A stretch of 60,620 nucleotides of DNA, filler included. It is 6 parts of 6 records of this genome, joined end to end, with 100 filler letters (N's around TTAATTAATTAA, not from the genome) between each part and the next. Parts side by side here need not be neighbours in the genome. Positions count along the whole stretch, not along the records: positions 16,775 to 26,568 come from SRR2962707_5568; 5 more parts are not named here. One strand, 5' to 3'. The notes under the pieces were generated by a model. It was not told the origin of the DNA, searched no databases, and worked only from the letters and a program-made list of their open reading frames with translations. The position numbers were made by a program, and so were the translations under genes. Below are positions 5,349 to 46,935 of this stretch, piece after piece; the stretch's first letter is position 1; every line of letters begins with the position of its first letter.

Positions 5349-5398
5349 CGGAGATACTGCCTGGAACGATTTAAATCGCTCTAGGCAGAGCGACCCGC

Positions 5399-6817
5399 CT
5401 AACCGGTCCGCGCCCAGAATGACGCCTTGCGATCATGCCGCAGGCGCAGAGTTTCGACATAGCGCAGGTGGCTTTGGAACGTTCCGTACTCCGCGATATC
5501 GCCGTCCGCAGCGGCACAATCCATCAGATGATCGGCGGCGTGGCCGTACCGGCTCGCCCGGCCCTTCTCCAGCGCAAAATCGATCATCGCCCGCCAGCAC
5601 AACACGGCGGCCAGCGGATGCCGGTCACGCAGCGTCTCTGCCGCCGGGGTCAGGATCTCGTAATAATCGCCATTCAGCTCGGACCAGCGGGTTTCGATCA
5701 ACCGCGCGGCAAGGGGCAGGTCCGGCCAATCCAGCAGGAACATCAGCGCGGTGTGCACCTCCGGGAACCGCAGCACATGCGCCTTGGCGCTATCCTCTGC
5801 CTCCATATCGTCGAAATCCGGCAGAACCTTCAGATAAGCGCGCAGAAACTCCGGGTCCAGCGTTTCACAGAACCGCGCCCAACGATGCTCTTGCGCCGCC
5901 TCCACCTGCCCCAGCGCCACAAGGCTGGCGATATAAACCTGATCCCAGACGGCATCCCCCTGCCCGTCCACTGGGCCCAGCAGGTCGATCGCATCCTGCG
6001 CCCGCCCGTCCGCCAGCAGGCGTTGCGCCGCGTCGGCGGCGATGCGCGGACGGGTCAGATCCTGATCGGAATACTGTGCAATATAGGCGTCGGTGTCGCC
6101 CTGCGCCTCGGCAATCTCTTGCCTTGTACTGCGGATCAGGCGGGCCTTGGCATCGGCCAGATAGCTGCCGCGCCCGCTGCGCAGATCACGCAAGAATTGC
6201 AGTGCCGCATGTGTTTCTGCGTCGTCTTCCAGGGGCGCATCCTCATAGGCGTCGACCAACAGACCAAGCTGCACCAAACCCGTACCCCCAAGGGCCGGCG
6301 CCAGCAGCGTGATGATCCCGTCAAATGCGCCATAGCCATTGTCCTGCACGGCGTCCCACACCTGACGGGCCAGCGCCTGGGGGTCGCGCTGCGCGCGCGG
6401 CGTAATATCAGCGAACTGGGCACGGGCGGCGCGGAACACATCACCCACCTCGCCCCGGCTGTCATCGACACGTTCGTACACCGCCGGGGCAAGCGATATG
6501 AAATCCCACAGCAGATCGAACGCCAGTACGGCATCCTCTGGCGCGATCCGGTCGGTGATCATTTCTGCCTGTGTCGCAAGATCGCGCACCAGGGCGGCGC
6601 GCTTGCGCCAGCTGACATGGCTGGTCGCCTTGCGCAGCGATACCAGCCGTTTGCGCACGTCCCGGGCCAATTCCTGCGGGCCGAGGTTGTGGCTGAGTTC
6701 CAAACGCAACCGCCGCTTGATCTCGGCGCTGCCCTGACTCACCTCGATCAGCAGCTCGGCAAGACGCTCGGCCCCAAGGGTGGTCAGATTGGCGGCATTC
6801 AGGGTTTTCTTTGACAT
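5399..6817 (-). CDS. Conserved helical protein (DUF6880-like)
   Basis: Begins MSKKTLNAANLTTLGAERLAELL; C-terminal RYGHAADHL...HDRKASFW. Confidence 0.7.
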   Translation of the reverse strand: MSKKTLNAANLTTLGAERLAELLIEVSQGSAEIKRRLRLELSHNLGPQELARDVRKRLVSLRKATSHVSWRKRAALVRDLATQAEMITDRIAPEDAVLAFDLLWDFISLAPAVYERVDDSRGEVGDVFRAARAQFADITPRAQRDPQALARQVWDAVQDNGYGAFDGIITLLAPALGGTGLVQLGLLVDAYEDAPLEDDAETHAALQFLRDLRSGRGSYLADAKARLIRSTRQEIAEAQGDTDAYIAQYSDQDLTRPRIAADAAQRLLADGRAQDAIDLLGPVDGQGDAVWDQVYIASLVALGQVEAAQEHRWARFCETLDPEFLRAYLKVLPDFDDMEAEDSAKAHVLRFPEVHTALMFLLDWPDLPLAARLIETRWSELNGDYYEILTPAAETLRDRHPLAAVLCWRAMIDFALEKGRASRYGHAADHLMDCAAADGDIAEYGTFQSHLRYVETLRLRHDRKASFWARTG

Positions 6818-6990: not shown

Positions 6991-8904
6991 TCAGGAGTTG
7001 CTGCCATCCAGCAACGGCGTGATCCGGCGCACGGCCGCGCGGCGGTTGGCGCGTTCGGCAACCGGAGTCTGCACGATCAGATCGCTTTCACCATAGCCCT
7101 GCACCACCAGGTTTTCTGGCGGCACGGCAAAGTATTCCGTCAACGCCAGCGCCACAGACTCCGCGCGCCGGTCGGACAGAGCCAGGTTATAACTGCCGGC
7201 ACCCACAGCATCGGTGTGGCCTTCGACCAGGAAAACCTCGGACGGGTTGCGCTGGATCATCCTGCGCATGGCATTGCCCAAGGCGGCCAGTTCCTCGGCC
7301 TCTTGCGGCTGGATCACAGCGGAGTTCGTTTCAAAGTTCACAGAATCCACGCTGATTTCCGGCACCAACTGGCGCACGGCGTTAATGTTGCGGATCTGGC
7401 TGAGTGAGAAGGTCCTGTTCACATTCGTGGCCTGCGCGGCCGTCAACTGCGCCTCAAGATCATCGGCGCCGATATCATTGAAATTCACCGCCCTGCGGGT
7501 GCTGATGCGGGGCAGCGTGCTGACCTCAACCGCTTGCGAACTTTGCGTGTCGTCAAACAGCAGCGCGGTCGATCCATCGGGCAGCGTGCGCGCCCGGCGC
7601 AGCACACGGCCATCGGCTGCGCGGATCGTCTCAACTTCGGTGCCATCCTCGCGGGTGACAACGGTGCGTGTCGATCCATCCGAATAGTTGTAGGTCTTGA
7701 TGTCGGACCCCGGCTGGCGCAGCAGGGCATCGTCATTCTTGATCACCCGGTACTGGCCATCGCGTTCGGCGATCACGCGGTCGCCCGTGTTGGCCGCCAC
7801 GGTTTCATTTTTGCGCAGTAGGCTACCGATGGCAACGGCACCAATGCCCAAAATGGCCGCCTTTTCAAAGGCTGTCAGACCCTTGTCGTCATCGTCGTCT
7901 TTCTTCTTTGCTTTGGCCTCCTTCTTTGCTTTGGCCTCGGTGCGCGTTTCGCCGGTAAGATCGGTGTCAAACTCCTCGTCCGAACTACGTGCGGTTTCCT
8001 CGGTCACGATCTCTTCGACCACATTGGCCTCAGCCTCAGCTGCAGCGCTGCCTTCAGCGTTGGATGCAGCCATGACGCCGGGCGCCTCGGCGTCGGCTTC
8101 CGCCTGAATTTCAGCCTGTTCTTCGGAATTCATCGGCGCAACATCTTCGGCCCTGGCCGCTGGCCGGGGTTCTGGTGTTGTGGCTTCTGGTGTCTGGGCC
8201 TCAGGCGCGGCAACGGCGGTTCCACCGGCATTGGTTTTCAGCTTTTCCGCCAGGGTTTCCGCTGTCTCATCTGCGGGAGCATCAGCAGGCATATCCGCTT
8301 CTGCAACTGGCTCAGTCGCGTCCTGCGCTGGCGCGGCGTCTGGCTCGATGGTCGCCGCCTCCTGTGATGCAGCCTCGGGTGCGGGGGCAACATCTGCGTC
8401 GGCCTGGGCCTCGGGTGCAGTCGCAGGCGTCTCAGCGGTTTGCCCGCTCGGCGCATCAGATACGGGCTCCGGGCTAGACTGCGCAGCCTCTGGGCCGGGC
8501 TCTGCGACGGGTGTAGGTTCGGCAGTTGCGGCCTGCGGCGCAGGTTCGGCTGGCGCTGTCAGCGGCGCGGGTGTGGCCTCGGGCGCAGGTGCCTCGGGCG
8601 CTCTCTCAGCGGCTTGCGGCGCAGCCTCGGGCATTTCGGTCACAATGTCCGCAGGCGCATCAATCGGCGCGTCCAGCGATTCATCGACAGGTGCATCAAC
8701 ATTGGCCCCGGCTTGCGCCTCGGCCTCGGCCTGGTTTTCAACCGCCTCTTCCAACTTCTGGCGCAGCAGTTCCGCCTGGACCTCTTCCTCGGTCTGGGCC
8801 GTGGTCTCGGCGCTTTCGGTTTGGGCAAAGCTCGGGATCGGGGCTGCGGCAAGGCTCGCCACCAGCAGCATGGCCGTCGAGGATTTCAGAAATCCGGGGT
8901 TCAT
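6991..8904 (-). CDS. OmpA-family peptidoglycan-binding protein with long Ala/Pro/Glu-rich N-terminal region
   Basis: Signal peptide; C-terminal VNFETNS...EGHTDAVG...NLALSDRRAESV...NRR. Confidence 0.9.
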   Translation of the reverse strand: MNPGFLKSSTAMLLVASLAAAPIPSFAQTESAETTAQTEEEVQAELLRQKLEEAVENQAEAEAQAGANVDAPVDESLDAPIDAPADIVTEMPEAAPQAAERAPEAPAPEATPAPLTAPAEPAPQAATAEPTPVAEPGPEAAQSSPEPVSDAPSGQTAETPATAPEAQADADVAPAPEAASQEAATIEPDAAPAQDATEPVAEADMPADAPADETAETLAEKLKTNAGGTAVAAPEAQTPEATTPEPRPAARAEDVAPMNSEEQAEIQAEADAEAPGVMAASNAEGSAAAEAEANVVEEIVTEETARSSDEEFDTDLTGETRTEAKAKKEAKAKKKDDDDDKGLTAFEKAAILGIGAVAIGSLLRKNETVAANTGDRVIAERDGQYRVIKNDDALLRQPGSDIKTYNYSDGSTRTVVTREDGTEVETIRAADGRVLRRARTLPDGSTALLFDDTQSSQAVEVSTLPRISTRRAVNFNDIGADDLEAQLTAAQATNVNRTFSLSQIRNINAVRQLVPEISVDSVNFETNSAVIQPQEAEELAALGNAMRRMIQRNPSEVFLVEGHTDAVGAGSYNLALSDRRAESVALALTEYFAVPPENLVVQGYGESDLIVQTPVAERANRRAAVRRITPLLDGSNS

Positions 8905-9041
8905 CGCGTTTCCTTTTCATAGTCCGCGTTGGCGGGATAAGTTGTAAACGCCCAGCGCGGCAGTCCCGGTTCCCAGACAGCTGAAAATATTCGGCGAATC
9001 CCCGCCGACGGCTGAAACATCCCATGCCCCACGATGCACGG

Positions 9042-9238
9042 TCAGTCGTTGATCATCGCCATCAACCGGGCCTTCTGACCCACGTCATCGGGACGCGATA
9101 TGGCATCGGCCAAATCCTGCAGCGACTGAACGGAATGACCGGCGCGGAACGAATCCACATGCGGCAACATCGCACGAATTCCGGCGGCCTTGGGCGCAAA
9201 GCCGTCCCAGCGCAGCAGCGGGTTCAGCCAGATCAGGC
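9042..9238 (-). CDS. CoxE-like VWA protein, C-terminal fragment
   Basis: LIWLNPLLRWDGFAPKAAGIRAMLPHVD...MAMIND*; truncated by gap. Confidence 0.85.
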
Positions 9239-9338
9239 NNNNNNNNNNNNNNNNNNNNNNNNNNNNNNNNNNNNNNNNNNNNTTAATTAATTAANNNNNN
9301 NNNNNNNNNNNNNNNNNNNNNNNNNNNNNNNNNNNNNN
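9239..9338. other. Artificial contig linker
   Basis: N-run, TTAATTAATTAA (stops in all frames), N-run. Confidence 0.99.
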
Positions 9339-9375
9339 AAGCTCCCTTGTCCAACACACCTGGACAAATAAACTG

Positions 9376-9407
9376 GCCCCGTACTTCGGTACGGGGCTCT
9401 TTTCTTT
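9376..9407 (+). terminator. Rho-independent terminator with UUCG tetraloop
   Basis: GCCCCGTAC-TTCG-GTACGGGGC-TCTTTTCTTT. Confidence 0.85.
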
Positions 9408-9428
9408 GCCGGGAACGGTCAGGGATGC

Positions 9429-9460
9429 AAAAAGGCGGGTCAGAAATGGCCCGCCTTTTT
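9429..9460. terminator. Bidirectional terminator
   Basis: AAAAAGGCGGG...CCCGCCTTTTT. Confidence 0.75.
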
Positions 9461-9490
9461 ATATGGTGCAGTGTAAAAGAAACCCGCGCT

Positions 9491-9721
9491 CTAAAGCAGG
9501 ATGTTGAGATATGTGCCGCGCCGGGCATTGTGGTCGATCTGATCGGTGGCGATCAGATTGCGCAGGCGCGCAAGCTGGGCGGCGATAAAGCTGTCAGGCG
9601 ATGGCTGATCGGGAAGTGATGGAATACGCCCACGGGCGCGCAACGCGCCATCCTGTCGGGTCGTGCGCGCATCCTGCAGGCCTGTTTGGGATGATCCAGT
9701 ACCAATTCTATTGGTGGGCAT
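9491..9721 (-). CDS. Small hypothetical protein (76 aa) ending RRGTYLNILL
   Basis: ORF track; terminator immediately downstream; C-terminal motif shared with the neighbouring small gene. Confidence 0.65.
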   Translation of the reverse strand: MPTNRIGTGSSQTGLQDARTTRQDGALRARGRIPSLPDQPSPDSFIAAQLARLRNLIATDQIDHNARRGTYLNILL

Positions 9722-9828
9722 CTTACCGCTGACAATGTGGTTCAGGTTTTAAACTGCCCGATCCTACCATGTGCGTAGTGGTTTGTCATGAACAGGACGC
9801 TTACGATGGCAGCTTGCCACGCAGACAG

Positions 9829-9853
9829 AAAAAAGGGTGGCGACTGCCACCCT
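9829..9853 (-). terminator. Rho-independent terminator
   Basis: Minus strand AGGGTGGC-agtc-GCCACCCT followed by a T-run. Confidence 0.8.
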
Positions 9854-9877
9854 GGAGGAAGCTAACGAGAGGGAAAA

Positions 9878-10089
9878 TCACGTTAGGATATTAACATTCG
9901 TACCGCGTGCGCCGCGTGTTTCGAGCGGCTGGTGTTCTGTCACAATAGAACCAATGGTTTTGGCAAGGCTGGTTGCCTTGTTAATCGCGCCTTCAGCGGC
10001 GGCAAACGGCAGTGACGGGCTTGCGCCATCGCCTCGTTAACAGCCTGTGCTGCGGCACTTAATCCTGAACCCTGAACTGAACCAACCAT
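9878..10089 (-). pseudogene. Small (~69 aa) gene with an apparent frameshift, MVGSVQGSGLSAAAQAVNEAMAQA...AAAEGAINKATSLAKTIGSIVTEHQPLETRGARGTNVNILT
   Basis: GAGGT RBS, ATG 10089, TGA 9878-9880, terminator after it; span is 212 nt (3n+2) and the two halves are in different frames. Confidence 0.6.
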
Positions 10090-10377
10090 TCTGACCTCAT
10101 TACATTACCGGGAGGGGACATTTACCCATCGCAGGAGGTGATTAAATCTCTAGCTCCTAGAGTATGGGTTCAGTATGTCAAAAAATGTGATGGCTGTCAC
10201 ACTTGGGCAAGCCCCGTGCAAATGGGGGTGTGTAACCACGTGCAATACAACGATTTCGCCCGGTCAAAATGGAAAGAATTTTTTAACCTTTTGCCAAGAT
10301 ATCGGCCCAAAAGGTGTGGAAAAGCCCCAAGACTCGACCCCAAAAATCATTGCAAGACCGGTTTCCGTCGATTTTCC

Positions 10378-12735
10378 TTAGCTGCTTTGGCGTTCCGCGC
10401 GAAGTGCCAGGGCATCGTGGATGGCTTTTTGAAGTTGTGCCGGGCGGAAGGGCTTTTTGATAAACACATAATTGCCCAGAAGCTTATCAAGCTCCTTGCG
10501 TGACCGTGCAGGGAAGCCGGACATGAAGACAACGGCGTATTGCGGGTTTTGGCGCAATGCTTCGATGATCAATTGCGGGCCACTGCGCCCTGACATGACA
10601 ACATCGGTCAGGATCACGTCGATCTTGTTGGTGTCATCGGTGGCCTTAAGGATTTCAAGCGCCTCTTCGGTGCTTTTGGCCGAAACGGCCTTAAATCCGG
10701 CATCCTCAAGGATGATGCCCGCAGTTGTGCGCAACGACTGTTCATCATCAACCACCAGAATGCGTTCGCCATTGCCCGGAATGCTATCGATGACGTCTTT
10801 TGACTGGGTTGCTTCCTCGGTGGCTTCGACGCGCGGTAGATAGACCGAGAAGGTTGTTCCTTCGCCTTCGACGGTTTCTACATTGATAAATCCATGGGCT
10901 TCTTCAACCCAGCTATGAACAATCGAAAGTCCAAGCCCCGTGCCTTTGCCCGGTTCCTTGGTGGAAAAGAACGGTTCGAAAATGTTTTCCAGAATATCAT
11001 CAGGGATACCCATGCCGGTATCCTGCACCGTGATGACAACAAACTTTCCAGAAGCATTATCGGGATGGGTTTCTTCGTCATCATCGCCGGTGCGTTGTAC
11101 CAACGGCGCAATCTCAACACTGCGCGAAGAAATTTGCAGTGTGCCACCGTCAGGCATGGCATCGCGGGCATTGATCGCAAGGTTCAACAGGCAGGCTGAA
11201 AGCTGTGTCGGGTCAACGCGGGTGTGAAGCTCCGGCTCGTTCGACCAGATCTGAAGTTCAATCCGGTGTTCAAGCAACGTGATCAGCAGCTTTTCCATCT
11301 CGGAAAAAACGCTGTACACACGGACATTGGTTGGCTGATCAATGCGACGGCGCGAGAACATCAAAAGCTGATCGGCAACACTGGTGGCGCGTTCACCCAG
11401 TGAAATCACGTGATCAAGGTATTCTTTTACGCGATCCGGGTTGTCGATCTTGGCACGTGCAACTTCGGCAAAACTCAAAATACCCGCAAGGCAGTTGTTA
11501 AATTCATGCGCAACCCCACCGGCCATTTGCCCAACAGCCTCAAGCTTCTGCGACGTTGCCAATTGGCGTTGCAACGCTTGCTGTTCCTCGGTTGCCCGGC
11601 GTTGTGACGTAATGTCACTGCCCGTGCCGCGATACCCTTTGAACGTGCCATCAAGTTCAAAGACGGGAACACCATTGATGCGTCCAAAGTGCTTCTCACC
11701 TTGGCGCGATGTCCATGAAAATTCGATGTTCTGGAACGCCATATGGGCCGACAAACGTGAATTAAGATACCGCCATCCATCCTGATCTTCGGAATGAAGT
11801 CCCAGTTTGTCAAAAGACTGGCCCTGCGGCGATCCGTTGATTTCTTCGATCAGCTGATAGAATTTATAGGACGCGAAAGCGATTTTAAGGTCCGCCCCCA
11901 TTTCCCAGTACCAGTCGGCCGATGACAGGGTGAAATCGCGAAACCGTTCTTCGCTGTCACGTAAGGCATCCTGTGCGATCTGATGCTGGAGGGTGCGCCG
12001 CTCAAGGCTTTCGGCCATGGCATTAAGGCCACGTTCCAACGTGCCGATTTCGTCCCGTCCCATCGGCGTCAGCCGCGAACTTAGCTTGCCAATCTGGATG
12101 TTATTAACAAACTGGGCGGCCGTAATCAGGCGCTTAAGCACGGTTTGCTGGGTAAACAGAAAAATCAGTGCCGATGTCAGCAAGATGCACATGGCAGAAC
12201 CAATCAGCAAAACCGATTGCATCTGTCGTTGGCTTGCTTCAAGGCCTTGGGTCGATACCTTGAAATAGGCATACATAAACGGCTGATTGGCATTGAGCGT
12301 AAACAGCGGGGTGATACTGACCATGTTGCGGCCACTGCTGTCATCGCTGGTAAACAGGACCTCCTCGGTCATGTCGGCGCGCAATTCATCCTTGGGGAAA
12401 TCGGGCAGCTCCTTGACCGAACGGCCGATCATCATAGGATCCATCGTGTGATAGATGGTCCCATCAAAACCGATCGCCATTGCCTCCTGCACATGGGGGC
12501 CCAGCAGAAGTTCCATCTGATCTGGATCGCTGATGACCGAGATTTTAAGCTGTTCGTCCTGAATTAATCGACCGGGTGCGCTGATTTGTTCGGCAATGCG
12601 TCGATCAATTTCCGCGCCAAAATACTGAACATAATACCCGCCAAAAAGCCCGAGCAGAATGGTCTCAACGATCACAATCGAAAGTGCGATCTTGAAAACC
12701 AGACTGCCGATCATCCGGTCCAACAGCTTCTTCAC
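10378..12735 (-). CDS. Hybrid sensor histidine kinase (TM-periplasmic-TM-HAMP-PAS-HisKA-HATPase-REC)
   Basis: [10 protein letters not shown]-box, NARDAM, DTGMG, GTGLGLS, C-terminal receiver (VVDDE, DVVM, KKPF). Confidence 0.95.
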
Positions 12736-12786
12736 GCGGTTATTTTCCCCCTGTCCTCACTCCGCAGAGTGACACATCTTATCTTC

Positions 12787-14700
12787 CTAATCTATGTAGT
12801 ACTGACTAGGATTTGTAGGTGCCGGCGTTGCATAGCTCCAGGCAGCAGGCATGATCTTTGGAACGTTATGAAAGTTCTTGGCAACCACGCCTTTGCGATT
12901 AAGCGGAAGCGCAATTCCCATAACGTAAAACTGATCGACGCTGATGTCGAGAATGTCGCGCATGAGTTGCGCTTGTTTTTCTGCATTTGCCGTGGCCTTT
13001 AGCTGATCATAAAGGGCAAGTTGCTTCTGAACGGCTTCTGGCGGGGTGATTGCACTGGGGCTTTCTGGGTTGGCATGCCAATTGGACCAGCCGGTTGCGA
13101 ACCATGAAGATTCCGCAGACACCGGAAGGTAGTTGATCGGGATCACCATGGCATCAAGGCCGCCATCACCGCCCCATGCACTGGCGTGATGATTGTTGTT
13201 TTGACGGTTTGCGACAAAAACATCGCGGGCAAGATTGCGTGCAGTGACATCAATGCCAATATCGCGCCAGTATTGGATAACGGCATTGAGCATGTCAAAG
13301 CGGTCGGACCCTTCTGTATCAATCATAAACGACAGACGCTTGCCATCGGGGCGCAGAAGGAAACCTTCGTCGTCCTTTTGCGTCAGGTTTGCCTTTGCCA
13401 GATAGTCTGTCGCCAGCTCGGGATCATGATTGATAAATTGCCGGGCAAGAACCGTATGATACAGCGGGCTTTCGGGGCGCGGTGCTGCCTGATGCGGGAG
13501 GGCGCCGGGGGTAAAGCGCCTGATAATGGCTTCGCGATCGATGGCATGGGACAAGGCAATGCGGAAGTTCTTGTTCTGGAAAATCTTGCGCAGAACAGCG
13601 TCCTTGTCATTGAGGTTCAAAGACAAGGTCAAGGCATTCATGTCGCTTTCAATCAGGGTGAACGGCAGCAAGTCATCATTGGCTGCCAGAACTTCGTCTG
13701 CACGTGTGCTGACGTGACGCTCTTGCATATTGACCTGTCCGGCAATTGCCGCATCACCTGCAGCACTTTTTGACGACACCAACGTGAATGAGACCTGATC
13801 AATATAGGGCAGTTGACGTCCTGTCGGGTCGATTTTCCAGTAATACGGATTGCGTTTGGCAATCAGTGGATCATCTTCGCCGTAGATACCGGTCAAAACC
13901 CATGCATTCAGTGTTGGAACGTCCGGATTTTGCCAGCGGCTCGGGTCGTCAATCGTTCCGGGGGTGCCAAAAACAGCGATAAAACGTTCTTTCCAACCTG
14001 CAAAGCCTTGCGCGCGTGCTTCTTCATCCGCGTTGGCATTATATTTTGGCAACAACGGTTTTAGAAAATGGGCGGGATAACTTACCGGCTCAACCCCTTC
14101 GGGGCGGGCAAGGGCGGTCGGGAAAAGGCCATAAGGGGTACTAAACCGGAATGCGACAGTCGTTTCATCGATTTTGTCGACTGTTACTGGATTGCCATCG
14201 GAATTAAGCCATTCGGGCACGTTTTCGGCAAAGGCCGGGTTGTTCAGGATGTCTTCGTACCAGAAAATAATGTCATCAACGCCAAACGGCGCGCCGTCAG
14301 ACCACCGCATGCCCGGACGCATGCGAAAGAAAAACTCCGTCGCATCGCTGCTGGGTTGAAAGGACAACGCGACATTGGGCACTGTGGTCGTCCATTGGGG
14401 TGTCCAGCGCAGAAGCGGTTCATAGCCAATGTTGCGGATCAGAAGTGCATGGTCGCGCTGGTCGCGCTGGGCCATCTTCCATGTGCCGCCGTAAACGCCA
14501 ACTTTGTCATTCGGGGTCACGATCATCGGTGTTGTCGGAAGACGCTGATCAACCGGCGGCAACGTGCCGTCCTTGACTTGGGTCTCAAGCATCGGGGCTT
14601 CGCCGAAATCAGCAGCATCTGACTTTGGCAGGTCAATCAGCATGACCGCCAAAACGCCAAACAAGATGCCAAACAAGATGTATGTGTAGTGTCTGACCAA
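12787..14700 (-). CDS. ABC transporter substrate-binding protein, family 5
   Basis: N-terminal signal; EAPML...LPPVDQRLP, GVYGG, RWSDGAPF, RNPYYWKID, PAPTNPSQYY. Confidence 0.9.
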   Translation of the reverse strand: MVRHYTYILFGILFGVLAVMLIDLPKSDAADFGEAPMLETQVKDGTLPPVDQRLPTTPMIVTPNDKVGVYGGTWKMAQRDQRDHALLIRNIGYEPLLRWTPQWTTTVPNVALSFQPSSDATEFFFRMRPGMRWSDGAPFGVDDIIFWYEDILNNPAFAENVPEWLNSDGNPVTVDKIDETTVAFRFSTPYGLFPTALARPEGVEPVSYPAHFLKPLLPKYNANADEEARAQGFAGWKERFIAVFGTPGTIDDPSRWQNPDVPTLNAWVLTGIYGEDDPLIAKRNPYYWKIDPTGRQLPYIDQVSFTLVSSKSAAGDAAIAGQVNMQERHVSTRADEVLAANDDLLPFTLIESDMNALTLSLNLNDKDAVLRKIFQNKNFRIALSHAIDREAIIRRFTPGALPHQAAPRPESPLYHTVLARQFINHDPELATDYLAKANLTQKDDEGFLLRPDGKRLSFMIDTEGSDRFDMLNAVIQYWRDIGIDVTARNLARDVFVANRQNNNHHASAWGGDGGLDAMVIPINYLPVSAESSWFATGWSNWHANPESPSAITPPEAVQKQLALYDQLKATANAEKQAQLMRDILDISVDQFYVMGIALPLNRKGVVAKNFHNVPKIMPAAWSYATPAPTNPSQYYID

Positions 14701-15171
14701 TTCCCGTTACCCCTATCGTCGTACTTTCTGTCCGAACGTATCTATTACGCTATCCAAAGGTGGTGGATACTGCGTGGGAGCTAAAAGGTAAATAGAGCAG
14801 TCGGTGAATTAAACCCTAAAATGACTCTGGTAGGATTCTTTCGCACAAAAATCGTTCGGAAAATCTGCAGTATAACTGCGCTGCACATAGTTTTCTTCGG
14901 CGGTGGCTTCACGCAACAGGCTGTTAAAGCCACAGAAACTGGTGGTGACGGGGCACCTTAAAAGATGCGCTAAAGCTGGAGGAGTTTATTTGCAACTTTT
15001 CGCTGCGCTCATGTGGCGCTGCGCCATAAATAGGATGTTAAACTAAAGTTTAATGACGCCTAAATTAGTAAATTTGCGGGTAAACGGCAAGTAACATGTA
15101 TTGGATCCGTCAAGCAGGAAACGAGTCGCATAGTGTGCTATTGTGCAAGCTCAACGGAGAATATCAGGTTC

Positions 15172-16674: not shown

Positions 16675-16774
16675 NNNNNNNNNNNNNNNNNNNNNNNNNN
16701 NNNNNNNNNNNNNNNNNNTTAATTAATTAANNNNNNNNNNNNNNNNNNNNNNNNNNNNNNNNNNNNNNNNNNNN
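16675..16774. other. Artificial contig linker
   Basis: N-run, TTAATTAATTAA, N-run. Confidence 0.99.
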
Positions 16775-17601
16775 CAGCAGCAGTAGTAGTAGCAGCAGCA
16801 GCAAAAACAACAAAAACAACAGCGACGACGCCGACGGCAATGACGACAACATCAATGTCGTCCATATTTTGGCTCGATTGAAGCGGGCTGCACCCTCTAT
16901 ATGCCCGAATAAAGGCTTCTGGAAACAACTTGTGGAGCTGGATGCTCAGCTTGGAGCACGACACGAGATGCTTCCCGAAAGCCAATGGCCTCGAATATAT
17001 CGCTTGCAAAAAGCATTGGAAATGCACAGTCGTGGAGCGTCCCCCATAAATTGGATTGGACTGAATTCGCTAACGCAGACCTGTCTTAGTCGGGACACGG
17101 TGCATCGGTTGGTAGTGCAGCGGTCTGCGGATTTTTGCAATGTGGTTTGTCATTTTTTGCTGCTCGCCGCTTAGTGTGTTACTTTACCATTTGATGCGAA
17201 ACAGGTATTCAATTTGTGAGCAATATCTTGCAAGCGCAGCACGTTCGCGGCTTCCTAACCCAATAACTGAGGCGCAACTTATCTCGCAATGGGGATCATG
17301 CACAGCTAAGGCACCATGCGTCCGGGATCAAGTTGGCTCGTTGTCTGCCAACCCAGCTCCAGATGGTCTACTTAGCGATGACACAGTCCGCGTGCCAACT
17401 GCATGTATTCTGGCGACCATTGTTGCAAATGCGTTGTGGGAAGACTTAGCGTACCGCCGGAATGTGCCCAGGCTTCTTTTCCAACTCGCACATCAACAGG
17501 AAGCAATTGATGTCATAGATGTTCGCGAGTGTCTCCACCTAGTGCAGCACAACGTGGACTTTGATGACTTGATTTTGGATGTGCCTCACGCAAGAAAGTA
17601 A
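16775..17601 (+). CDS. Eukaryotic dual-specificity phosphatase-like gene, 3' part (possible intron 17108-17204)
   Basis: LARLKRAAPSICPNKGFWKQLVEL resembles the DSP C-terminal I-x-PN-x-GF-x2-QL motif; the catalytic motif is not in the window; exon structure uncertain. Confidence 0.5.
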
Positions 17602-17763
17602 GTTTTGATATCTTGGGCGCTAGACTTCACAACTAAGGTCCCCGCCTTAGCAATCGTGTTTTTACGTTCAAATGGTGGCCGGTCAAGGTATGCTCGTGAA
17701 ATTGTCACTTCAACGAACCGGCTGTTAGACCGTGGTACTTTGCGCGATACGCACGCTGTCGAC

Positions 17764-19571
17764 ATGGCAACGGCCACTGCTTTCCGGCGCAGTTGTGCTG
17801 CAGTTGACCTTGCTGTTTCGCTGGCTTTGGACCCTACACGAGGCGCTTTGGGCACCCAAGTGCCAGGCTGCGCGGTAGCACTTGTGCGAGAAGGTTGGTG
17901 CATGCGGCATGTTGTTTCTAGCAGTCCGCAGTTGCTGCCGAAATTGAGTTGTGTCATTGATGCACTTTCAGGACAAGTTGTTCATCGATCCTGTGGTGGA
18001 TACTGCCGTCTGGACCGCAACGGGCTTAGTGGTGAAGGCCACGTCGGGTGTGACACCGTTTTTCTCACCGCATCCATTTCAAAAACCGTGTGCGCTTTAG
18101 TGTGCTTGCGCGCGGTTGAGCGCGGAGTTATATCAAGCTTAGACGCTGACTTGCGGGAGCTGGTGGGACTTGGCAGCAGCGATTGCAAGGGTTTCGCTGG
18201 CGACGGCGAGGCTCCCTATTCGGCCGCCGCGGTCATTGCGCTTGCCCGTAACCCACATTTTCCTGGTATGCCGGTGACGTTACGACATCTGCTAACGCAC
18301 TCCTCGGGTCTTTGCGACAATGAAGCAGCTCTGGAAGCTGGCTCCGCATGGCGCGTTGAGGAACGAGACTTCGAAGGATCGCTGATCAAGTGCGGGAACC
18401 ATTGTGGCGCGCGTGCTATTTGCGACCGACCTTGTGCAATTTGCTATAGATTGTCAGCTGTAGATTGTGCTTGCCCTTGTCGCTAATGGTTTCTGGTACT
18501 GTTCTCGGCAAGGTATGTGGAGCAGCGCCTTTTGACAACTGGTTCTTCGTCGTCAAATGCTCGCATATGGAGCTCAAAGGCCCCTCCTGGGCGTGCGAAA
18601 TACCATTACTCCAACGCTGGATTTACACTTTTGGGAGCCGTCCTGGAAGTGGTGTCAGGGCGATCATTGCATACTCTCGCAGAAGAATGGGTATTCAGGC
18701 CATGTGGAATGAGTGCGTACGATGAGAAGCATGCATTTGTTCTTGCACGCTCTGCTTTTTTTCGGCATCTTGCACTCCTCGCGTCGTGTTGAGCTGATGG
18801 TTGTCGCACGGCTCAATTGGGACAACATCTCGTGTGCAACAAATAGCTCGATCGTCGTTTTCGTGTAAGATTGTGGAGACTGGAATGCCGGACGTTGCTT
18901 TTCCGCACCGAAGGGGCCGCTCAATATCCCATTTTGGCGTAGCTGAATGGCCGGCCGCTCAGTTGCGGTCCACTGCAAACGACCTTGCTTCGATGCTCTG
19001 TGCTTTGACGTCGGAGATGAGCCCCGGGTCGCACTCGCTTGAGAAGTTAGCATCGACAGGACCAACCCCAGCACCCGCTAGCATTATTTCACAATCGTCT
19101 CGGGCACAAATGCTCCCGCCAGGTCCGTCACCCGATGCGTGAACGATTGTCATCTCTCCTGCTTTAGCAATGATTTTGAGAATTTAGCATTCACATGCCA
19201 TTCGTTGTGAACTTGCTTGTGGTTCTTCATAAACAGGCGGAAAATGTGGCTTGGCGTGGTGGGGAACAGATGCCATATACTCCGTGAAAAAAAAAGGTAA
19301 TGACCGCGTCGTCACGACACGACCGCTGAGATTCCATGGCAAGGAGCGTGATTGTGGTCAAAAACGTTTGTTTTTTATTTTATTAAACTTCGATTGGTGC
19401 AACAACGCATGGCCAGGTATCTTCGAGCATGGCGGTTTCATGGACGGAACACGAACACATATTTGGCTAGCTCCAGGTGCGCGCCGAGGAGCTGTTTTCC
19501 TCTCAAATGGAGACGGTGACTACAGTGATATCTCTGAGGCGGTCCACGGTTTTTTGCTGGGCAGCATGTGA
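17764..19571 (+). CDS. Eukaryotic serine hydrolase of the beta-lactamase/AmpC family, 6 exons (17764-17893, 17972-18389, 18513-18712, 18847-19122, 19237-19296, 19417-19571)
   Basis: SISK (SxxK), LLTHSSGL, YSN (YxN), HGG motifs; GT-AG splicing gives 1239 nt in frame. Confidence 0.8.
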
Positions 19572-19725
19572 CGTGTCGCTCACCTTCAAGGCGCTCACGA
19601 GTCCTTGCTACCCTCCAAAAACTTGCTTTTTCAACGCACGAGGGTTCATACTGTCATCGGCCAACGTGTAAGAAATTACAGTGTACAAGCAGTACTGTTG
19701 GCATTTTAATAAAACCGAAGCCTCG

Positions 19726-22700
19726 TCAGTTTTTGGCAACAACGCTTTCGTCGCTTCTTGGGGATGTTGCAGCCGATTCACTTCGGCTTGCAGAATCTGG
19801 ACTTTGTGCAGAACTGGCCGAAGCTGCAGTTGCCGCACGCTTCTTCTCGAGCCAAGCAACCAGCCTTTTAGTGCGCTTGACGTGAGTCATAAGTTCCGCA
19901 AGCCTCCAGCCGTCAGTATCAATGTTTATCCACTCGTCATATTTACTGTCCCATTTCAAGTAGTGAATCAATACTTCGCTGTTCCTTCGATCCACCACTT
20001 TTCCAGCAAACCACATGTTTAAAGGGTCCTGCACGTCAATGTAATCTCCGATCTCAACGTCGTCGGGGACAAAAGTAGCGCCCTGTATTTTCAGAAATGA
20101 ATGTGAGTAAACCAGCAGTGATCGCCGCTCCTACTCTGCGCACACTCAAATGTAACAAAATGGGCAGCACTGACCTCAACAACATAGTTACCGCCCTGCT
20201 CCCACTGTTCCTCTGGTGCCTCGCACGTTTGTCGTGTGGCGTCCCATTTGTTATCTGTGCAGAAAAAATCTGTGTCGGGATTCCATTTGATGGGCAAGGA
20301 CCGCCACTTTTTGCATGCCTCGCACTGTGCCCAGAACATTGCCACTGTTGGTGCTTGACTTTCGGCGTCGCTCTCATCTTGTTTGTTTCGTTTTTTCGCT
20401 TTGCCGCGACCACTGCTGGATTTTCTGTCTTTATTCTTTCTTTTTGTGGAACTGCCTGTCTTGTCGCTGTGCTTGTCAATTGTCTCAGCTTCGTCTGCTG
20501 CTCGGCGCCTGTATCTACAAAAAATGAACAACAGGCCCGCAACAAGAATAAAGTAAGTAATATTTCGGCAGTTCATTCATGCGGAGAGTCACTGTGGTCC
20601 ACAGCGATTGCGAGCTCACAAGTTCGAGTATCTTACACTTCGCGGGTTGCTGCGTCCAGCGCTTTCCATCCATTATTGATCTGAGCGAGAACGGGTCCTT
20701 TCTCGAGGTCAAAACCCCCTTTCGCTTTTGCTTCGGCACGCCGCTCACGGCAATACAAGCGGTGCGCTGCCTGGAACGAGACTTTGCGTTTGATACCCGA
20801 GGCTGGTTTCCCACCAGCACGGCGGTGGTACGTGACAAGTGTGGACTTGGTTTGACGTTGTGCTTGCAAAGCTTCACGCTGCTTTTTGAATTCTTGCCGC
20901 TGCTTCGCTTTCGCTGCCCATATTTTTGCCGAAGTGCCTGCTGATTCCCGGAGGAGAGCAAGAACCTCGGCGTACGACGCGCCACATGCAGCAGACGGAA
21001 AATGCCTTGCTGAGTCACGGCCCTTCGTTTTTCGCCTCCGGCAGCCACCCGACGGCACAATAGGAACGGTTCCCCCTTGAGTTACCTCATATTCGGATTC
21101 AGCAGCCTTTTGCTGTGCGGTTTCGAACTCAACAACAACATCAAGGATTGGGCTACCGAATACGAGCTTCTCAATCGGAACAGGTATGTTTGAATTGCAC
21201 GACACGGACTTGTTTTGGGGTTTGCTTGGCCCATCACCTGTACCGCTCAAGGAATTTCCATGGGCATCAGCTGCCACGGCTGGAAAACCAAGTGCCCGCG
21301 CGAGCTTGGACGACACTGTGTCGAATGGAGCTGTGCGCAAATGCGGGATGAAGTGGCGGTTGCTCCAATCGTGGGATGCAACGATGCCACCAGCGCCTTG
21401 TCCAAGGAGCCGACGAGTCAAATCACCGGGAGAAAGTGAAGCAATCTCGCTAGATTCAGCTGTTTGTGTTTGACTGGTACCAGAACCTCCGGCCGCTGCC
21501 GCTGGCGCAGAAGCGGCAGATTTCGCACAACAATCAAAGCTATTCATGGCGTACACTGGGGGTAAATATCCTCCAAGGCGTACCGCCTGTACGAAGTCGA
21601 CCAAGTCAAGACTTTGCTGGTCGAACCATTGGAACGCATGCTGCAGCAACGCCACTGCTCCCGATCCGTCCCCGTTGGCACTGGTGACCTTCTCGTTGAT
21701 GGTATAAAAATTGCGTGTGTTTGCGTAAAGCCGCAAAATATGAACACCCCGCCCGGCAGCAGCCCGAACTTGGTCGAGGCGACGGCTTTCTAAGGTTTTT
21801 GCATACGCATCAACACCATCCGCGATTGTGGCCATCTGTGACATTGAAGTGGGTTTTGGCGTACGTTTTCTCGACGATTTTTTCTCAGCACTTGGCGCAG
21901 AAACGTTGCTGCACGAAGACTGCATCGCCACGACGCTTTCGTTTCGCTCCGTTTGAGCGATGCCGGTGAGCTTGCCACCGACAGTTGCAGTCGAGCTCGA
22001 GCTGATCTCCGCTGGCATTGGGTCGTTCGACTCGGAAGCAAACGAAAGAATCGTGTTTGCCCATTGCCGGAGAACGTCACTTGCTTCAAGCAAACTCACA
22101 GAAACCTGGTCAACTTCATCATCGACAATGCCAGTGCATCCACTATCGGCAGTGTTGTTTGACAGCCCACTTGACGACTCAGGATTCGGAACAGGTTGCG
22201 CACTTGCACTCGGAGATTGGTGTTTTTTGCCTTTTAGATTGAGCAACGCACTTAGCTCTGCTTCAACGCGATTCCACGATGCAAGTACTTTTTCATTCGT
22301 TTGTTGCAAACGGTTCCATACGCTCGCAACCGCCTGCTCCGAATCCGAGGTTGGATTTGAGAGAGCCAACCGAACAGCTGAATCAGGCGTGTTTCGCAAA
22401 ATTGCCCGAATGGCGGTGTCCGTGTGTCGGAGCGTTTGGCGCAACACGCTCTTCTCAGAATAAACCAAAAACTCTGCAGTATCAGTCCCGTTCAATTTCC
22501 GAAATGGGGCTGACACTGCATCTGCTGCATCTGCCTTTGAAAATGCTTCAGAAGCTGTGGTGGGCGTTGCTTCACTTGAGACGAAATGCCGAATGATGTC
22601 AAGAGCTGTCACCAAGTTTGAAGTACGTTGTTCAAATCTGTGGGACACGTTTGCACAAACATCCACAATTACACTGGCACAAGCAGCAGACGCAAAAGAA

Positions 22701-25700
22701 AAAAAAACATGTCTCCTGTGAACATACACTGAGGCAGCAAGGCGAATGTTCTCCACGGCTCCAATTGTTGCACCGGTTGCCTTCATAATTTTCTGCATTT
22801 CCTCAAGTTCTTGCGGCAGAAATTTTCGCTCATTGTTCATAAAGCGCAAAACAGCAGCACACCAGCGCAAACTCCAACTTGGCTGATCAGCCAAAGCACT
22901 GGTGCCAAGACAGCTTATCGAAGAAATCTGGTCCACAAGACGCTTTTTTGAAAAAGGTGGGTCTTTTGCTGCCGGCGCAGACGAGACGTCGGTGCCGGCG
23001 GAATGACTTGCGTTGATGCCTGCCTTAACCGAGTTGTCTTTGCTGGCGAAGTCAGTGCCATGGCACGCTGTGCACAACATCCCAAGGCGCTGCAATTGTG
23101 TGTGATGTTGCTTCAGGAGCAAAGATGCCATTGTTGCCCCGGTAAAATTGAGAAAAGAGCCACGGCACGTGACTCCGCCACACAGGCACACGGCCGCTCG
23201 GAACTCTTCTTCAGATTCGGTGACACAGTTGTAGTCCTGCGTGCACCGTCAACAAATGAGAGCAAATCAACTTTGAAAACGTCGCAGCGGCGAGAAAAAC
23301 GAACAATTCGAAAGAGTCATTCAAGTGCAGCGCATAGAATTCGGGAGCAACAAACCTGGGTAAGTTCCTCACCAGGCCGAATCGGCCGCAGTGTTCGTAC
23401 GGCAATGACGTATTGCCCGTTCAGAACAGTCCCTTCCAGTGCGCAGTTAGGTGCACACGAGTGGGACATGCGCGACGAAAACGCGGCGTGGTCTTTAGCG
23501 TCGACATAGAGGAGGTCATATCCTTCAGGGTCCGACCGGTTGCGCTCAAGTCTGATGTTGTAAAACTCCGGGACCTGGCCAATAACAAGCAAATTTACCA
23601 GCACATCGGCAGCGGGACGAGGTGATGATTTGGCCCTTCCATCGCAGCGCCACACTCCGGTGGTAAAAACAACGACGCCACCCACCTGGAATACAACCTT
23701 ATCGTCCTCGTCGTGAAGATTTTGTTGCAAAGACTTGCCCTTTCCAGCAGTTGTCTGTCGAGCCTTCGCCCTCTCCAAGAATAAGCGTTGTTGCTGCGCA
23801 CGCTCAAGCTTCCGCTGCTCCTCTTCTTCCCTGTCCTTTTGTGCCCATTTCCAAGCCGGGTAAACGGACCCAAGATATTCAGTAACAAATCGATTGGCGG
23901 GAATTGTCTTGTCGGTGGCGCAAATGACACCACAGCCTTTCGGGTGGATTGCAAAATGTAGCAGTCCCACGTCTTGGCATACGGCGGCAATTTTCCGCAC
24001 ACCAGCCGCAATTTGCTCGCGACGAGGCGCTCGCGGGTCTGCGAGTGATGGGATCCACGTCCGCTCTCCGTCCGATCTTACAACGAACCGGGCTGGAGCC
24101 TGCTCCATCATCCGTTCTGCATCCTCGTCCGCCTTCTTTTGGTTTGCACTGTGTTTGCTTGCGCTGTCCGCTCCACAGCCGTGACCGCCACAACAAGGAC
24201 CAACGAAATCACCATCGGGAACTTTTTGTAGTGGTGGATCGAGACATGACATGTGAAACTCCTTGTCGCACCCAGGCCCATCACAAAGTAGCGCCTCTTC
24301 TGGGCGCTCAGACGACCCGCATATTGCACAAACAGTGTCCTCTCCGATTGGGGCTACAATGTACTCGCGCTTTTGGTCAGCGCCAGCACGCTCATCGGTT
24401 GGCAGTGGCGGGCCAGTTTCGTCAAGCGTCCCATGCGGGGCCGGGCCAGAGTACCTGCAAACAAAAACACGTTGTGTGACATTGACACACCGTGTTGCAG
24501 GCCTCGACCTCGTGTGTGCAAAGTGTAGGTCTAGCAAAACTCACCAATCCAAGAGCAACTTGATGGTATTTTGAATATCGTGCGCAAGCGTTGGGTCCTC
24601 GACAGCATTGACCGCGGGGAGAAACACATTCTCGATGAAGAAAGTTGCTTGCGACCGCGTCATGGTGAGCGGCGCAGGCACCAGCCCCAGAGCAAGCTCG
24701 ATATTTTTCCGCGTGTAGCAGTCGATACCCCAAGTGTCTCGCTCGATGATGTCTCCGCTGGACAGCTGGAGTCTCTGCCATTTCACCGTGCGGCGTTCCT
24801 GCGCTGCCACTTCGAGTGCCAAGTGGTCTGCTGACTGCGGTTCAGACTTGGCATTGGCTTGGTGGTCAGCGTCCACCGAGAGTTTGCCATCTGACGAGCC
24901 TGCAACTGAAGCAGCCACCGCCTTTTGACCGCTCCCATCTGCCGTTGCAGGGGCACTGGTTGACGCGTTGGCCTCACGTGTCGCGCTTTTTTTTCGAAGT
25001 TTAAGGCGGCGATTGCGATTGGCTTCAATCGCGTCTGCAATTGCCCTTTTTTTAGCTGCAGCTGCGTCAACAAGACGCTGCAACTCCCAGTCTTCCTTCT
25101 CCACGGCAGCGACAAAATCTTCGCGGGTCATGGACGTCTTGAGTTTCCGCATCACTCGTTCGGCTTCGTGTGGACGGAGGCATTCCGATGGTTCATACGC
25201 AGTAATAGCACGGTACCTAACGTGGTTAACATTTTTGCGCAACGCGGAATTTGACAACCGCGCGCGACCCGTTTACACAAGCCGAACCAACACCGCGCAA
25301 TGCAACAAGGTTGAGTGAGATGTAAAGGCAGCATGCGTAGCCAACGAAAATGATGCAAACCGACTCAACTCACTCTCGCTTCGAGTACGGCATCTTGTGC
25401 CATTTTCCTTGCACACAAGGCTGTCGGTTCTTTTCACGTATCATTTCAAGCAGGTCTTTGCGCCGCTGTGCCGAAAGAGTCTGTGTTACTCGCTTCTGGA
25501 ACGAGGAAATTACTTGCTTGCATTGTGCCAGCATCCAGCCAGCCTCGAAGTGTGCTGTGCCCGCGTCATCGCTGGGCGGAAAAAATGCTCGCGCATTTTC
25601 TGCAATCTGGGTTACATCACGGAGCAAGCGATCATATTGTATTTCAGCAATTCCAGTGCCACTGCCATCTCCAGCAAGCACTAGAGCCATGTACAATCCT

Positions 25701-26568
25701 TCGTCGCAGCTGTTGGCGCCCGTGGGTGAAGACGATGGCGACGAAAACACCCTCTTCGATGCACGGTACCGTTGGTCCATGACTTTGAAGTCGATGTACG
25801 GATGCGGAATCGAGGATTCAAATGTTGGGTTCGTCCTTCGCAGGTCATCGTCTTGGAAAAATGCGTAGCGGTCTTTCTGCTTCAGTTTTTTCATAATTTT
25901 GGCAAGGTGTTCGTAATTTCGTTTCGATTGCTTTTGCCGTCGTTTCAGCCGTGCTGCGGCGTTATCCTCTACTTTAGTCACATTGTAATGTGTGATGACC
26001 TCCTTCACAAGTGCTTCTTTTTTGCGGTCGAGGCCTTTGAAGATGGCCGTTTGCTGTGCCTTTGACAGTCCAGTTCCAGCAACATGCCCACTCGCTGAAC
26101 GGCTTCGTCGCTCTTTCCGTTCCCGCAGCAATGTCTCAACGCCGTCCCGCACGTGGCTGAGTTTGCGCCCATTGTACTTCAACGACTCCCAGCCAGAATC
26201 AGACACAACGTCGGCCTTCACCTGCCGTTTCATTGCCAGACTAAACGAGGACGGGTTCACGTATTCAGTTCCGTCACCGCCGTGGTGCGTGATCGTCCCA
26301 TCTGGGCGGACGTCAGCCCACCACTCGTACTGCTTGTACTTCATGTGCAGCACTTTTTCGCCGAATGGGATCAAGCCAGACTCGCCCAGCGACTTCAAGG
26401 GCCGCTCGCGATCGATTACAAGCAGCGTTGGGGGCAAAGGGTCAACGTAGTTGTCGTTGGCGGCTGCTTCCTGTGAGGCAGCAGGTGCCGAACTGCTGGT
26501 CCCGACAGCGGAAAAATGGACAGTCGACGGAGAATCAGCGACGCTGCTGCTGCTGCTGCTGCTGCTGC
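19726..26568 (-). CDS. Eukaryotic multidomain ATXR3/SDG2-type histone lysine methyltransferase, 5'-truncated; exons 26568-25374, 25216-24545, 24454-23686, 23574-23356, 23236-22728, 22637-20637, 20514-20175, 20082-19726
   Basis: Manual GT-AG splicing gives one frame of about 2019 aa; SET motifs HPKGCGVIC, EYLGSVYPAWKW, PEFYNIRLER, RMSHSCAPNC, ELTQDY, post-SET CLCGGVTCRG; also RAMA, bromo-like, PHD, HMG, CW and Tudor-like segments. Confidence 0.85.
26543..26568. repeat. (CTG/CAG)n microsatellite at contig end, poly-Ser in the minus-strand frame
   Basis: gctgctgctg... run; contig 3 also starts in CAG/TAG repeats. Confidence 0.9.
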
Positions 26569-26668
26569 NNNNNNNNNNNNNNNNNNNNNNNNNNNNNNNN
26601 NNNNNNNNNNNNTTAATTAATTAANNNNNNNNNNNNNNNNNNNNNNNNNNNNNNNNNNNNNNNNNNNN
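26569..26668. other. Artificial contig linker
   Basis: N-run, TTAATTAATTAA, N-run. Confidence 0.99.
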
Positions 26669-36692: not shown

Positions 36693-36792
36693 NNNNNNNN
36701 NNNNNNNNNNNNNNNNNNNNNNNNNNNNNNNNNNNNTTAATTAATTAANNNNNNNNNNNNNNNNNNNNNNNNNNNNNNNNNNNNNNNNNNNN
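36693..36792. other. Artificial contig linker
   Basis: N-run, TTAATTAATTAA, N-run. Confidence 0.99.
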
Positions 36793-46835: not shown

Positions 46836-46935
46836 NNNNNNNNNNNNNNNNNNNNNNNNNNNNNNNNNNNNNNNNNNNNTTAATTAATTAANNNNNNNNN
46901 NNNNNNNNNNNNNNNNNNNNNNNNNNNNNNNNNNN
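46836..46935. other. Artificial contig linker
   Basis: N-run, TTAATTAATTAA, N-run. Confidence 0.99.

Follow-up and report, generated by a model that had tools for sequence, protein, structure and literature searches.

A spliced protist gene for a probable H3K4 methyltransferase of the ATXR3/SDG2 family with RAMA, PHD, CW and Tudor modules in one chain

The window analysed here, a stretch of DNA of 60,620 bases, harbors on its minus strand, at positions 19726-26568, the gene of a very large SET-domain methyltransferase of the ATXR3/SDG2 type. The window is made up of six unrelated contigs, and ten runs of N form the five N44-TTAATTAATTAA-N44 spacers between them (9239-9338, 16675-16774, 26569-26668, 36693-36792 and 46836-46935). 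The gene lies on the contig at 16775-26568, which has a G+C content of about 51%; the other contigs have 58-68%, except for one 2-kb bin with 46%. Among the window parts examined, this contig alone is eukaryote-like. From the N to the C terminus, the encoded protein has a RAMA domain, a divergent bromodomain-like region, an ATXR3-type pre-SET block, a PHD finger, the SET and post-SET domains, an SDG2_C region, a degenerate HMG-box-like segment, a CW-type zinc finger and a Tudor barrel.

Six long minus-strand open reading frames (ORFs) follow each other head to tail between 19726 and 26568. Removal of seven minus-strand introns, whose borders were set after the ambiguity of the cut had been resolved and which are all of the GT..AG type, yields one open frame of 2019 residues that ends with the stop codon at 19726-19728. 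A start codon is missing from this frame, as the contig breaks off within a Ser-codon repeat; position 26568 is the end of the contig in this repeat and not the start of the gene. The partial coding sequence (19726..26568, minus strand, as are all features of the gene) comprises eight exons. Exon 1 (25374..26568) encodes the RAMA domain and the bromodomain-like region and is followed by intron 1 (25217..25373, 157 nt); exon 2 (24545..25216) encodes a linker and the pre-SET block and is followed by intron 2 (24455..24544, 90 nt). Exon 3 (23686..24454) contributes the PHD finger and the N-terminal part of the SET domain. Intron 3 (23575..23685, 111 nt) lies within SET, is in frame and free of stop codons, and is not found in the ortholog protein P0001. 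The C-terminal part of SET is encoded by exon 4 (23356..23574), the post-SET region and the start of SDG2_C by exon 5 (22728..23236); these two are separated by intron 4 (23237..23355, 119 nt). Behind intron 5 (22638..22727, 90 nt, again in frame), exon 6 (20637..22637) encodes the C-terminal region of ATXR3 type and the larger part of the HMG-like segment, which is split by intron 6 (20515..20636, 122 nt). Exon 7 (20175..20514) carries the end of this segment, a basic linker and the CW finger, and after intron 7 (20083..20174, 92 nt) exon 8 (19726..20082) encodes the Tudor barrel, the tail and the stop codon.

The exon structure is based on the splice sites, the spliced frame and the contigs of a second sequencing run. 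When words were sampled from the contig 16775-26568, 98% were found in the DNA run X1 and 80% in run X2. Contigs of X2 skip 14 stretches of the window contig and contigs of X1 skip none. Seven of the skipped stretches are GT..AG on the plus strand (16837-19415) and the other seven are CT..AC, that is, GT..AG on the minus strand, in the methyltransferase gene. Because X2 contigs drop 14 strand-consistent GT..AG introns that are kept in X1, we treated X2 as RNA. An X2 contig of 4659 nt extends between 26532 and 21343 and joins the exons on either side of five introns, and a second one of 1459 nt starts at 21362, crosses the last two introns and, judged by its length, extends past the stop codon. 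These joints and the spliced frame match what the initial annotation had proposed from the letters alone, namely seven introns, a frame of more than 2000 residues and the end coordinates. The domain borders given there were also within a few codons of the Pfam matches (RAMA, residues 56-141 = 26144-26401; PHD, 24190-24330; SET, 23359-23916; CW, 20205-20336).

X1 contigs lack one base of the window in each of five homopolymers (T7-8 or A9-10), at 18756, 19287, 22699, 24987 and 25047. At 22699, an intron site without X2 cover, some of them lack two bases. The sites at 24987 and 25047 are in exon 2, where X2 contigs match the window. At four of the five sites, both exon 2 sites included, the X1 deletions are absent from X2 contigs, and the one-base deficits look like homopolymer-length errors in X1.

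A metagenome contig scan revealed two further loci, which share 99.7% identity and were counted as one organism; one of them is from seawater. The spliced protein of the window is colinear with this seawater-metagenome ortholog (L002) over residues 3-2011. A three-intron model of L002, which was chosen by frame and similarity and is not RNA-supported, gives a protein of 2020 residues with 54% overall identity to the window protein. The conservation is uneven: the identity is 78% in RAMA, 62% in the bromodomain-like region, 82% in pre-SET, 81% in PHD and 78% in SET/post-SET, as against 43% in the SDG2_C region, 43% in CW, 36% in Tudor and 29% in the HMG-like segment. The window gene has seven introns and L002 three modelled ones, and only the intron between CW and Tudor (intron 7) is at a common position; the HMG box is split at different points in the two genes. 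The part of L002 compared with introns 1-5 of the window is 2619-6563. A single ORF of 1314 residues in L002 covers what is divided in the window among the end of exon 1 to exon 6. Because this ORF spans their positions, five of the window's splice junctions are independently validated, and the database protein P0001 shows the same exon joins as L002.

Three points have to be weighed against this gene model. X2 is a public run whose RNA label is a guess; about 60 N-terminal residues, by alignment to L002, are missing, cut by the contig end; and the two X2 contigs overlap by just 20 nt (21343-21362), within the uninterrupted exon 6, so that the gene is not contained at full length in any one RNA contig. 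The last point, together with a break of the DNA-run contigs at 22697-22700, would be compatible with the long frame being an artefact in which neighbouring separate genes, or the parts of a chimeric contig, had been joined wrongly. However, the 20-nt overlap is bridged by the continuous ORF of the window as well as by the single 1314-residue ORF of the ortholog, the DNA-run contigs break in an A-run of intron 5, across which the RNA contig is spliced, and every junction is bridged by an RNA contig, the window ORF or the ortholog ORF. We therefore regard an artefact as extremely improbable. The gene structure and its spliced expression are demonstrated, and in our reading the methyltransferase is encoded by one nuclear, spliced and transcribed gene of a marine protist.

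The catalytic core starts with the ATXR3-type pre-SET block (24545..24729), identified by motif alignment as WGIDCYT ... FIENVFL. The motif [WF]GID.[YF]T is present in six of six aligned sequences (the window protein and P0001-P0005); we take this block to be a putative, uncurated marker of the ATXR3 family. SET and post-SET (23135..23916), interrupted by introns 3 and 4, match Pfam SET with 2.7e-11 (44.2 bits, cut-off 22.4), and the motifs HSC.P.C, GEELT.[DN]Y and CLCG...C.GS[FY] are likewise found in all six of these family members. In the SET-I region there is a long, charged, lineage-specific insert. The C-terminal region of ATXR3/SDG2 type (20840..23197), which contains intron 5, matches Pfam SDG2_C with 5.2e-16 (59.1 bits, cut-off 27) in two stretches, the better of which covers profile positions 1-64 of 420. 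In the Atlas, a cluster of SDG2_C comes first (0.90, with 179 features in common), and another Atlas query returned mostly PHD-SET clusters. The assignment to the ATXR3/SDG2 type in the initial annotation is borne out by the SET and SDG2_C scores and by the WGIDCYT block, common to five of the five relatives aligned.

Judged by its motifs, the core composed of pre-SET, SET, post-SET and SDG2_C is intact. This speaks directly to the idea that the protein might be a catalytically dead reader scaffold, for which one could point to the bromodomain and the HMG box, both clearly decaying in the window copy. With SET/post-SET motifs intact and a domain 78% identical to that of the ortholog, a dead scaffold is very unlikely.

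A well-supported accessory module is the RAMA domain (residues 50-146, 26129..26419). It matches Pfam RAMA (PF18755) with 2.1e-14 (53.8 bits, cut-off 35.2), and in an AlphaFold2 (AF2) model of the exon 1 product, for which 32 sequences were aligned, the RAMA part has a predicted local distance difference test score (pLDDT) of 93-98. The RAMA domain of mouse MPND (7ydw_A) was matched by this model in Foldseek (E 3.1e-7, TMt 0.88) and in VIA (Z 14.3, root-mean-square deviation (rmsd) 1.5 over 91 residues), and by the sequence in phmmer (7.3e-5). In VIA, the adenine methyltransferase CcrM comes next, with its C-terminal DNA-binding domain (Z 9.8). Residues S113, S115 and W135 of MPND are reported to contact DNA (PMC9963953). 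S115 and W135 are identical in the RAMA domain of the window protein, and S113 is aligned to Asn.

A search with exon 1 against 1.84 billion representatives gave 78 matches at E <= 0.001, of which 17 were at or below 1e-10 and three at or below 1e-30, so that several more relatives are represented by fragments. Twelve other long RAMA proteins from these 78 matches were scanned; they combine RAMA with bromodomain, PHD, Myb, FYRN or WSD, and in none of the twelve was RAMA accompanied by SET. The architectures among P0043, P0035, P0030, P0045 and P0027 include FYRN-RAMA-Bromodomain-WSD (2094 residues), RAMA-Bromodomain, RAMA-PHD and Myb-RAMA, and P0021, P0024, P0025 and P0036 have two RAMA stretches each. 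In a 2015 BioEssays paper, Iyer, Zhang and Aravind (PMC4738411) state that RAMA is found in some eukaryotes together with SET, PHD, Chromo, Tudor and Bromo domains and that it is present in stramenopiles.

The PHD finger (24190..24330) is well supported by Pfam (PF00628; 5.3e-8, 33.2 bits, cut-off 24). Its last pair of zinc ligands is unusual (..GPCCGGHGC..) and is kept in the ortholog. Its position, inserted between pre-SET and SET, is seen in this lineage only; P0002-P0005, the four more distant relatives aligned, lack the insertion. The closest solved PHD fingers are those of KMT2D, Lid/KDM5A/B, UHRF1 and ATXR5, most of which read unmethylated H3K4. The CW-type zinc finger (20205..20336; Pfam zf-CW, PF07496, 1e-11, 45.1 bits, cut-off 27.5) is closest to the solved domains of MORC3 (1.5e-5) and ZCWPW1 (0.019), and the alignment with MORC3 retains W..C..C.KWR and the later pair of cysteines. 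The Royal-family Tudor barrel (19894..20058) was recognized by phmmer, with PHF20L1 and PHF20 Tudor1 at 3.5e-6, by an AF2 model with a pLDDT of about 90 over residues 11-60, and by Foldseek, with PHF20L1 Tudor1 (6l0x_A) at E 6.7e-4, TMt 0.69 and rmsd 1.7 over 57. Pfam matches on this segment, MBT (0.0037) and Tudor-knot, stay below their cut-offs. The motif H[FY]..W...YDEW is common to the window Tudor and PHF20L1, and the Tyr of 'DYLQKWY' in PHF20L1 is aligned to Pro. RAMA, PHD, CW and Tudor thus occur in the order claimed in the initial annotation, as seen in Pfam, phmmer and structure matches, and for these modules domain identity and, with the values given above, conservation in the ortholog are demonstrated.

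The bromodomain had also been claimed there, and here the homology stands, whereas the function is in doubt. The region (residues 205-385, 25412..25954) is divergent and has a low-complexity insert. In L002 the bromodomain passes Pfam (1.2e-8, 35.3 bits), and a five-row profile of the lineage matched 43 PDB sequences at E <= 1, with BRD1 as the best (6.4e-4); because bromodomain chains make up 41 of these 43 matches, homology is supported. In the window protein itself, Pfam Bromodomain (PF00439) gives only 0.022 and 15.1 bits, under the cut-off of 21.7, and the AF2 model of the region has helices that do not form a compact bundle. Bromodomain chains were seen at a Foldseek E of about 2 only, and there was none among the 50 VIA matches listed (best chain per entry). 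The residue opposite the Asn of 'KYN' in BRD1 is Phe in the window protein and in L002 and Asn in P0018 and P0029 (in a low-scoring second segment). This Asn is the residue of bromodomains that anchors acetyl-lysine. The sub-cut-off score, the lack of a compact fold and the Phe in place of Asn make binding of acetyl-lysine doubtful. We read the region as a true but decaying bromodomain that has probably lost the binding of acetyl-lysine in this species.

The situation is similar for the HMG-box-like segment (residues 1735-1805, 20463..20797), which is split by intron 6. The colinear segment of L002 passes Pfam HMG_box (PF00505; 7.5e-6, 26.7 bits against a cut-off of 25.4) and matches the boxes of HMGB2/HMGB1 with 4.7e-4, and the two segments align without gaps over 46 residues with 30% identity. 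Against an HMG box in the window protein stands that its unspliced exon 6 part had no HMG match in Pfam and PDB phmmer searches at E <= 10. On this alignment, the window segment is a positional homolog that is degenerate in this copy. Of the six reader modules in the initial annotation, therefore, four are solid histone or DNA modules and two are degenerate; in addition, RAMA and HMG bind DNA and not histones. As predicted from the domain types, there would be two DNA-binding modules (RAMA and the degenerate HMG-like box) and four histone-tail modules (the divergent bromodomain, PHD, CW and Tudor).

Taken together, we consider it likely that the protein, of at least 2019 residues, is a multivalent, self-targeting, probable H3K4 methyltransferase of the ATXR3/SDG2 family that carries its targeting modules in cis. 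The target is inferred because the characterised ATXR3 members methylate H3K4: PMC12744764 describes ATXR3/SDG2 as an H3K4 methyltransferase in vitro and reports that H3K4me2 was tested by knockout of a gene of the ATXR3 family in Nannochloropsis, and PMC13084085 names ATXR3 as the primary writer of H3K4me3 in plants with genes in protists too. Mono-, di- and trimethylation of H3K4 is known for the plant members of the family only and is implied for the Nannochloropsis one. In such an enzyme, RAMA and, perhaps weakly, the HMG-like box would tether the protein on nucleosomal or linker DNA, and the PHD finger would bind the N terminus of H3 beside the active site, presenting or sensing the tail. 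CW and Tudor would bind lysines that are already methylated. The enzyme could then be recruited to its own H3K4 methylation, which would be reinforced or spread in a positive read-write loop. The H3K4 specificity, the ligand preferences and this feedback are what we infer from the family and the kinship of the modules.

Two observations weigh against parts of this scheme. The kinship of the PHD finger fits substrate capture better than reading of the product. And the SET region is only about 32-38% identical to that of other SDG2_C proteins (32-34% to those that bear a bromodomain or CW), so that the family membership from which specificity is deduced is a distant one. The enzyme may then methylate another lysine, histone or non-histone, with the readers specifying a different chromatin context. 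The near tie of KMT2A (1.2e-4) and SETD2 (1.4e-4) as closest solved SET domains by sequence and the long charged insert in SET-I would be compatible with that. But the SDG2_C and pre-SET blocks are specific for the family, and the characterised plant members and, according to PMC12744764, a stramenopile member act on H3K4, which makes a different target lysine unlikely.

A bolder reading concerns the ligand of RAMA, which with 78% identity to L002 ranks among the best-conserved regions. RAMA might read putative N6-methyladenine (6mA) in DNA and thereby place the H3K4 methyltransferase on 6mA DNA downstream of transcription start sites, which would be a direct coupling of the two marks. According to PMC4738411, RAMA was defined from fusions with adenine methylases and restriction enzymes, was predicted to discriminate m6A, and occurs in stramenopiles and in fusions with SET; the RAMA fold of the window protein indeed matches the DNA-binding domain of CcrM. 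PMC12695648 reports that 6mA colocalises with H3K4me3 nucleosomes in eukaryotes that encode AMT1, a stramenopile included, and states that the readers are unknown. RAMA joined to an ATXR3-type SET domain was seen in this lineage only, as the twelve other long RAMA proteins have no SET. On the other side, the RAMA domain of MPND, the sole solved one, binds double-stranded DNA regardless of 6mA and with backbone contacts only (PMC9963953), and we hold a 6mA-reading RAMA to be unlikely. Equally unlikely is the wider proposal that the RAMA-bearing ATXR3 enzymes of this marine protist lineage are direct 6mA-guided H3K4 methyltransferases and thus the missing 'intermediate protein' behind the colocalisation of 6mA and H3K4me3 past the transcription start sites of AMT1-encoding eukaryotes. 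RAMA fused to an H3K4 writer is a testable candidate for the link between 6mA and H3K4me3 raised in PMC12695648. Should RAMA do no more than clamp DNA generically, like its counterpart in MPND, the protein would be a well-documented yet unsurprising example of how protist chromatin proteins accrete domains.

Downstream of the methyltransferase gene, a convergent neighbour gene lies at 16775-19571 on the plus strand; the two stops are 154 bp apart. It has seven RNA-supported GT..AG introns and a frame of 679 residues that is cut by the start of the contig, and its C-terminal half looks, by eye, like a serine hydrolase of the beta-lactamase/transpeptidase type. Repeats of Ser-codon trinucleotides, in coding frames, are present at both ends of the contig (16775-16810 and 26540-26568) and have probably broken the assembly there. 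The contig at 9339-16674 has long uninterrupted ORFs of bacterial type, among them an ORF of 792 residues (10378-12756) that resembles hybrid sensor kinases and one of 639 residues (12787-14706) that resembles solute-binding proteins, both named by eye. In L002 the flanking genes (8672-10900, plus strand; 12074-13072, minus strand) are unlike the neighbour in the window, so there is no synteny; the downstream one is sulfatase-like by eye. A giant-virus origin was rejected as the methyltransferase gene and its neighbour each hold seven introns of spliceosomal type. RAMA domains are also found in giant viruses (PMC4738411); no relative was found in viral contigs (0 of 56 pattern matches) or in contigs of prokaryote genomes (0 of 58).

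Two orthologs begin with the motif DLQLALAMSLS (L002 1513-1600 and the N terminus of P0015), and the part of the window gene that would match it lies past the contig end. The motif resembles a ubiquitin-interacting motif (UIM), with a Pfam UIM E value of 0.49 that is well below the cut-off, and it might add a link to histone ubiquitination.

How does this protein compare with known systems? With ATXR3/SDG2 itself (Pfam SDG2_C, PF19633; PANTHER PTHR46655 in PMC12744764) it shares the SET/post-SET motifs, the WGIDCYT block, SDG2_C and the very large size. What it adds are RAMA, the PHD finger between pre-SET and SET, the HMG-like box, CW and Tudor. The SDG2_C match is partial, and the likeness to the Arabidopsis protein is seen in family profiles and motifs. 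Descriptions of plant ATXR3 generally mention no reader domains. How ATXR3 finds chromatin is still being worked out, and modules that protists carry in cis are a natural dissection of the features needed.

Set1/MLL (KMT2) enzymes are likewise H3K4 writers with PHD and bromodomain modules, and the closest solved PHD finger is from KMT2D, yet they belong to another catalytic clade: in PMC13084085, ATXR3 is described as an outgroup to Set1/Trx/Trr and as an ancient enzyme that was lost in animals and fungi. In Tetrahymena, the bromodomain protein Ibd1 co-purifies with an 'Atxr3/SET1-like' enzyme (PMC5844071); there the bromodomain is supplied in trans, whereas it is in cis in the window protein. 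MPND has a RAMA fold nearly superimposable on that of the window protein and joins it to an MPN/JAB deubiquitinase-like domain; the effector is a JAB peptidase in MPND but an ATXR3-type SET domain here.

The closest resemblances are to other protist proteins. A PHD-SET word-index search returned 13 relatives, of which 11 have SDG2_C, seven zf-CW and two a bromodomain; RAMA is in none of the 13 according to precomputed Pfam lists, many of the entries being fragments. Seven of the 13 were rescanned with Pfam, and no HMG box was found at E <= 0.1 in the rescanned ATXR3-like relatives. In P0006 (EukProt), SET-SDG2_C-PHDx2-CW precedes a Tudor-like segment, for which an alignment with CW-Tudor of the window protein was obtained (32.5%, 6.8e-12); P0012 has SET-SDG2_C-CW-MBT-like, and in P0002 and P0005 a bromodomain stands upstream of SET-SDG2_C. 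In this set of protist ATXR3-like proteins (P0006; P0004, P0009-P0013; P0002, P0005), PHD fingers are placed elsewhere than in the window protein. With P0006, P0012, P0002 and P0005, public data already contain ATXR3-type enzymes that bear bromodomain, PHD, CW and Tudor modules. As for the whole array, a search with exon 6 among proteins of 1169-3335 residues matched P0001 alone (1 of 7999 scored) and a Tudor-exon word-index search had no match among 441 candidates; that neither retrieved a full-length database entry with the whole array is weak evidence of its absence. The full array on an ATXR3 core appeared in no searched text, and apart from the general statement in PMC4738411 none of these texts has RAMA on an ATXR3-type enzyme; Figure 4 of that paper or its supplements may depict the array. 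The initial annotation had called the architecture unrecognised. As a claim of novelty this does not hold for the single combinations, given these relatives and the RAMA fusions in PMC4738411, but it still holds for the full array in the texts searched. By domain content, then, parts of the combination are known from other protists, and RAMA together with the full array on an ATXR3 core would be the new variation.

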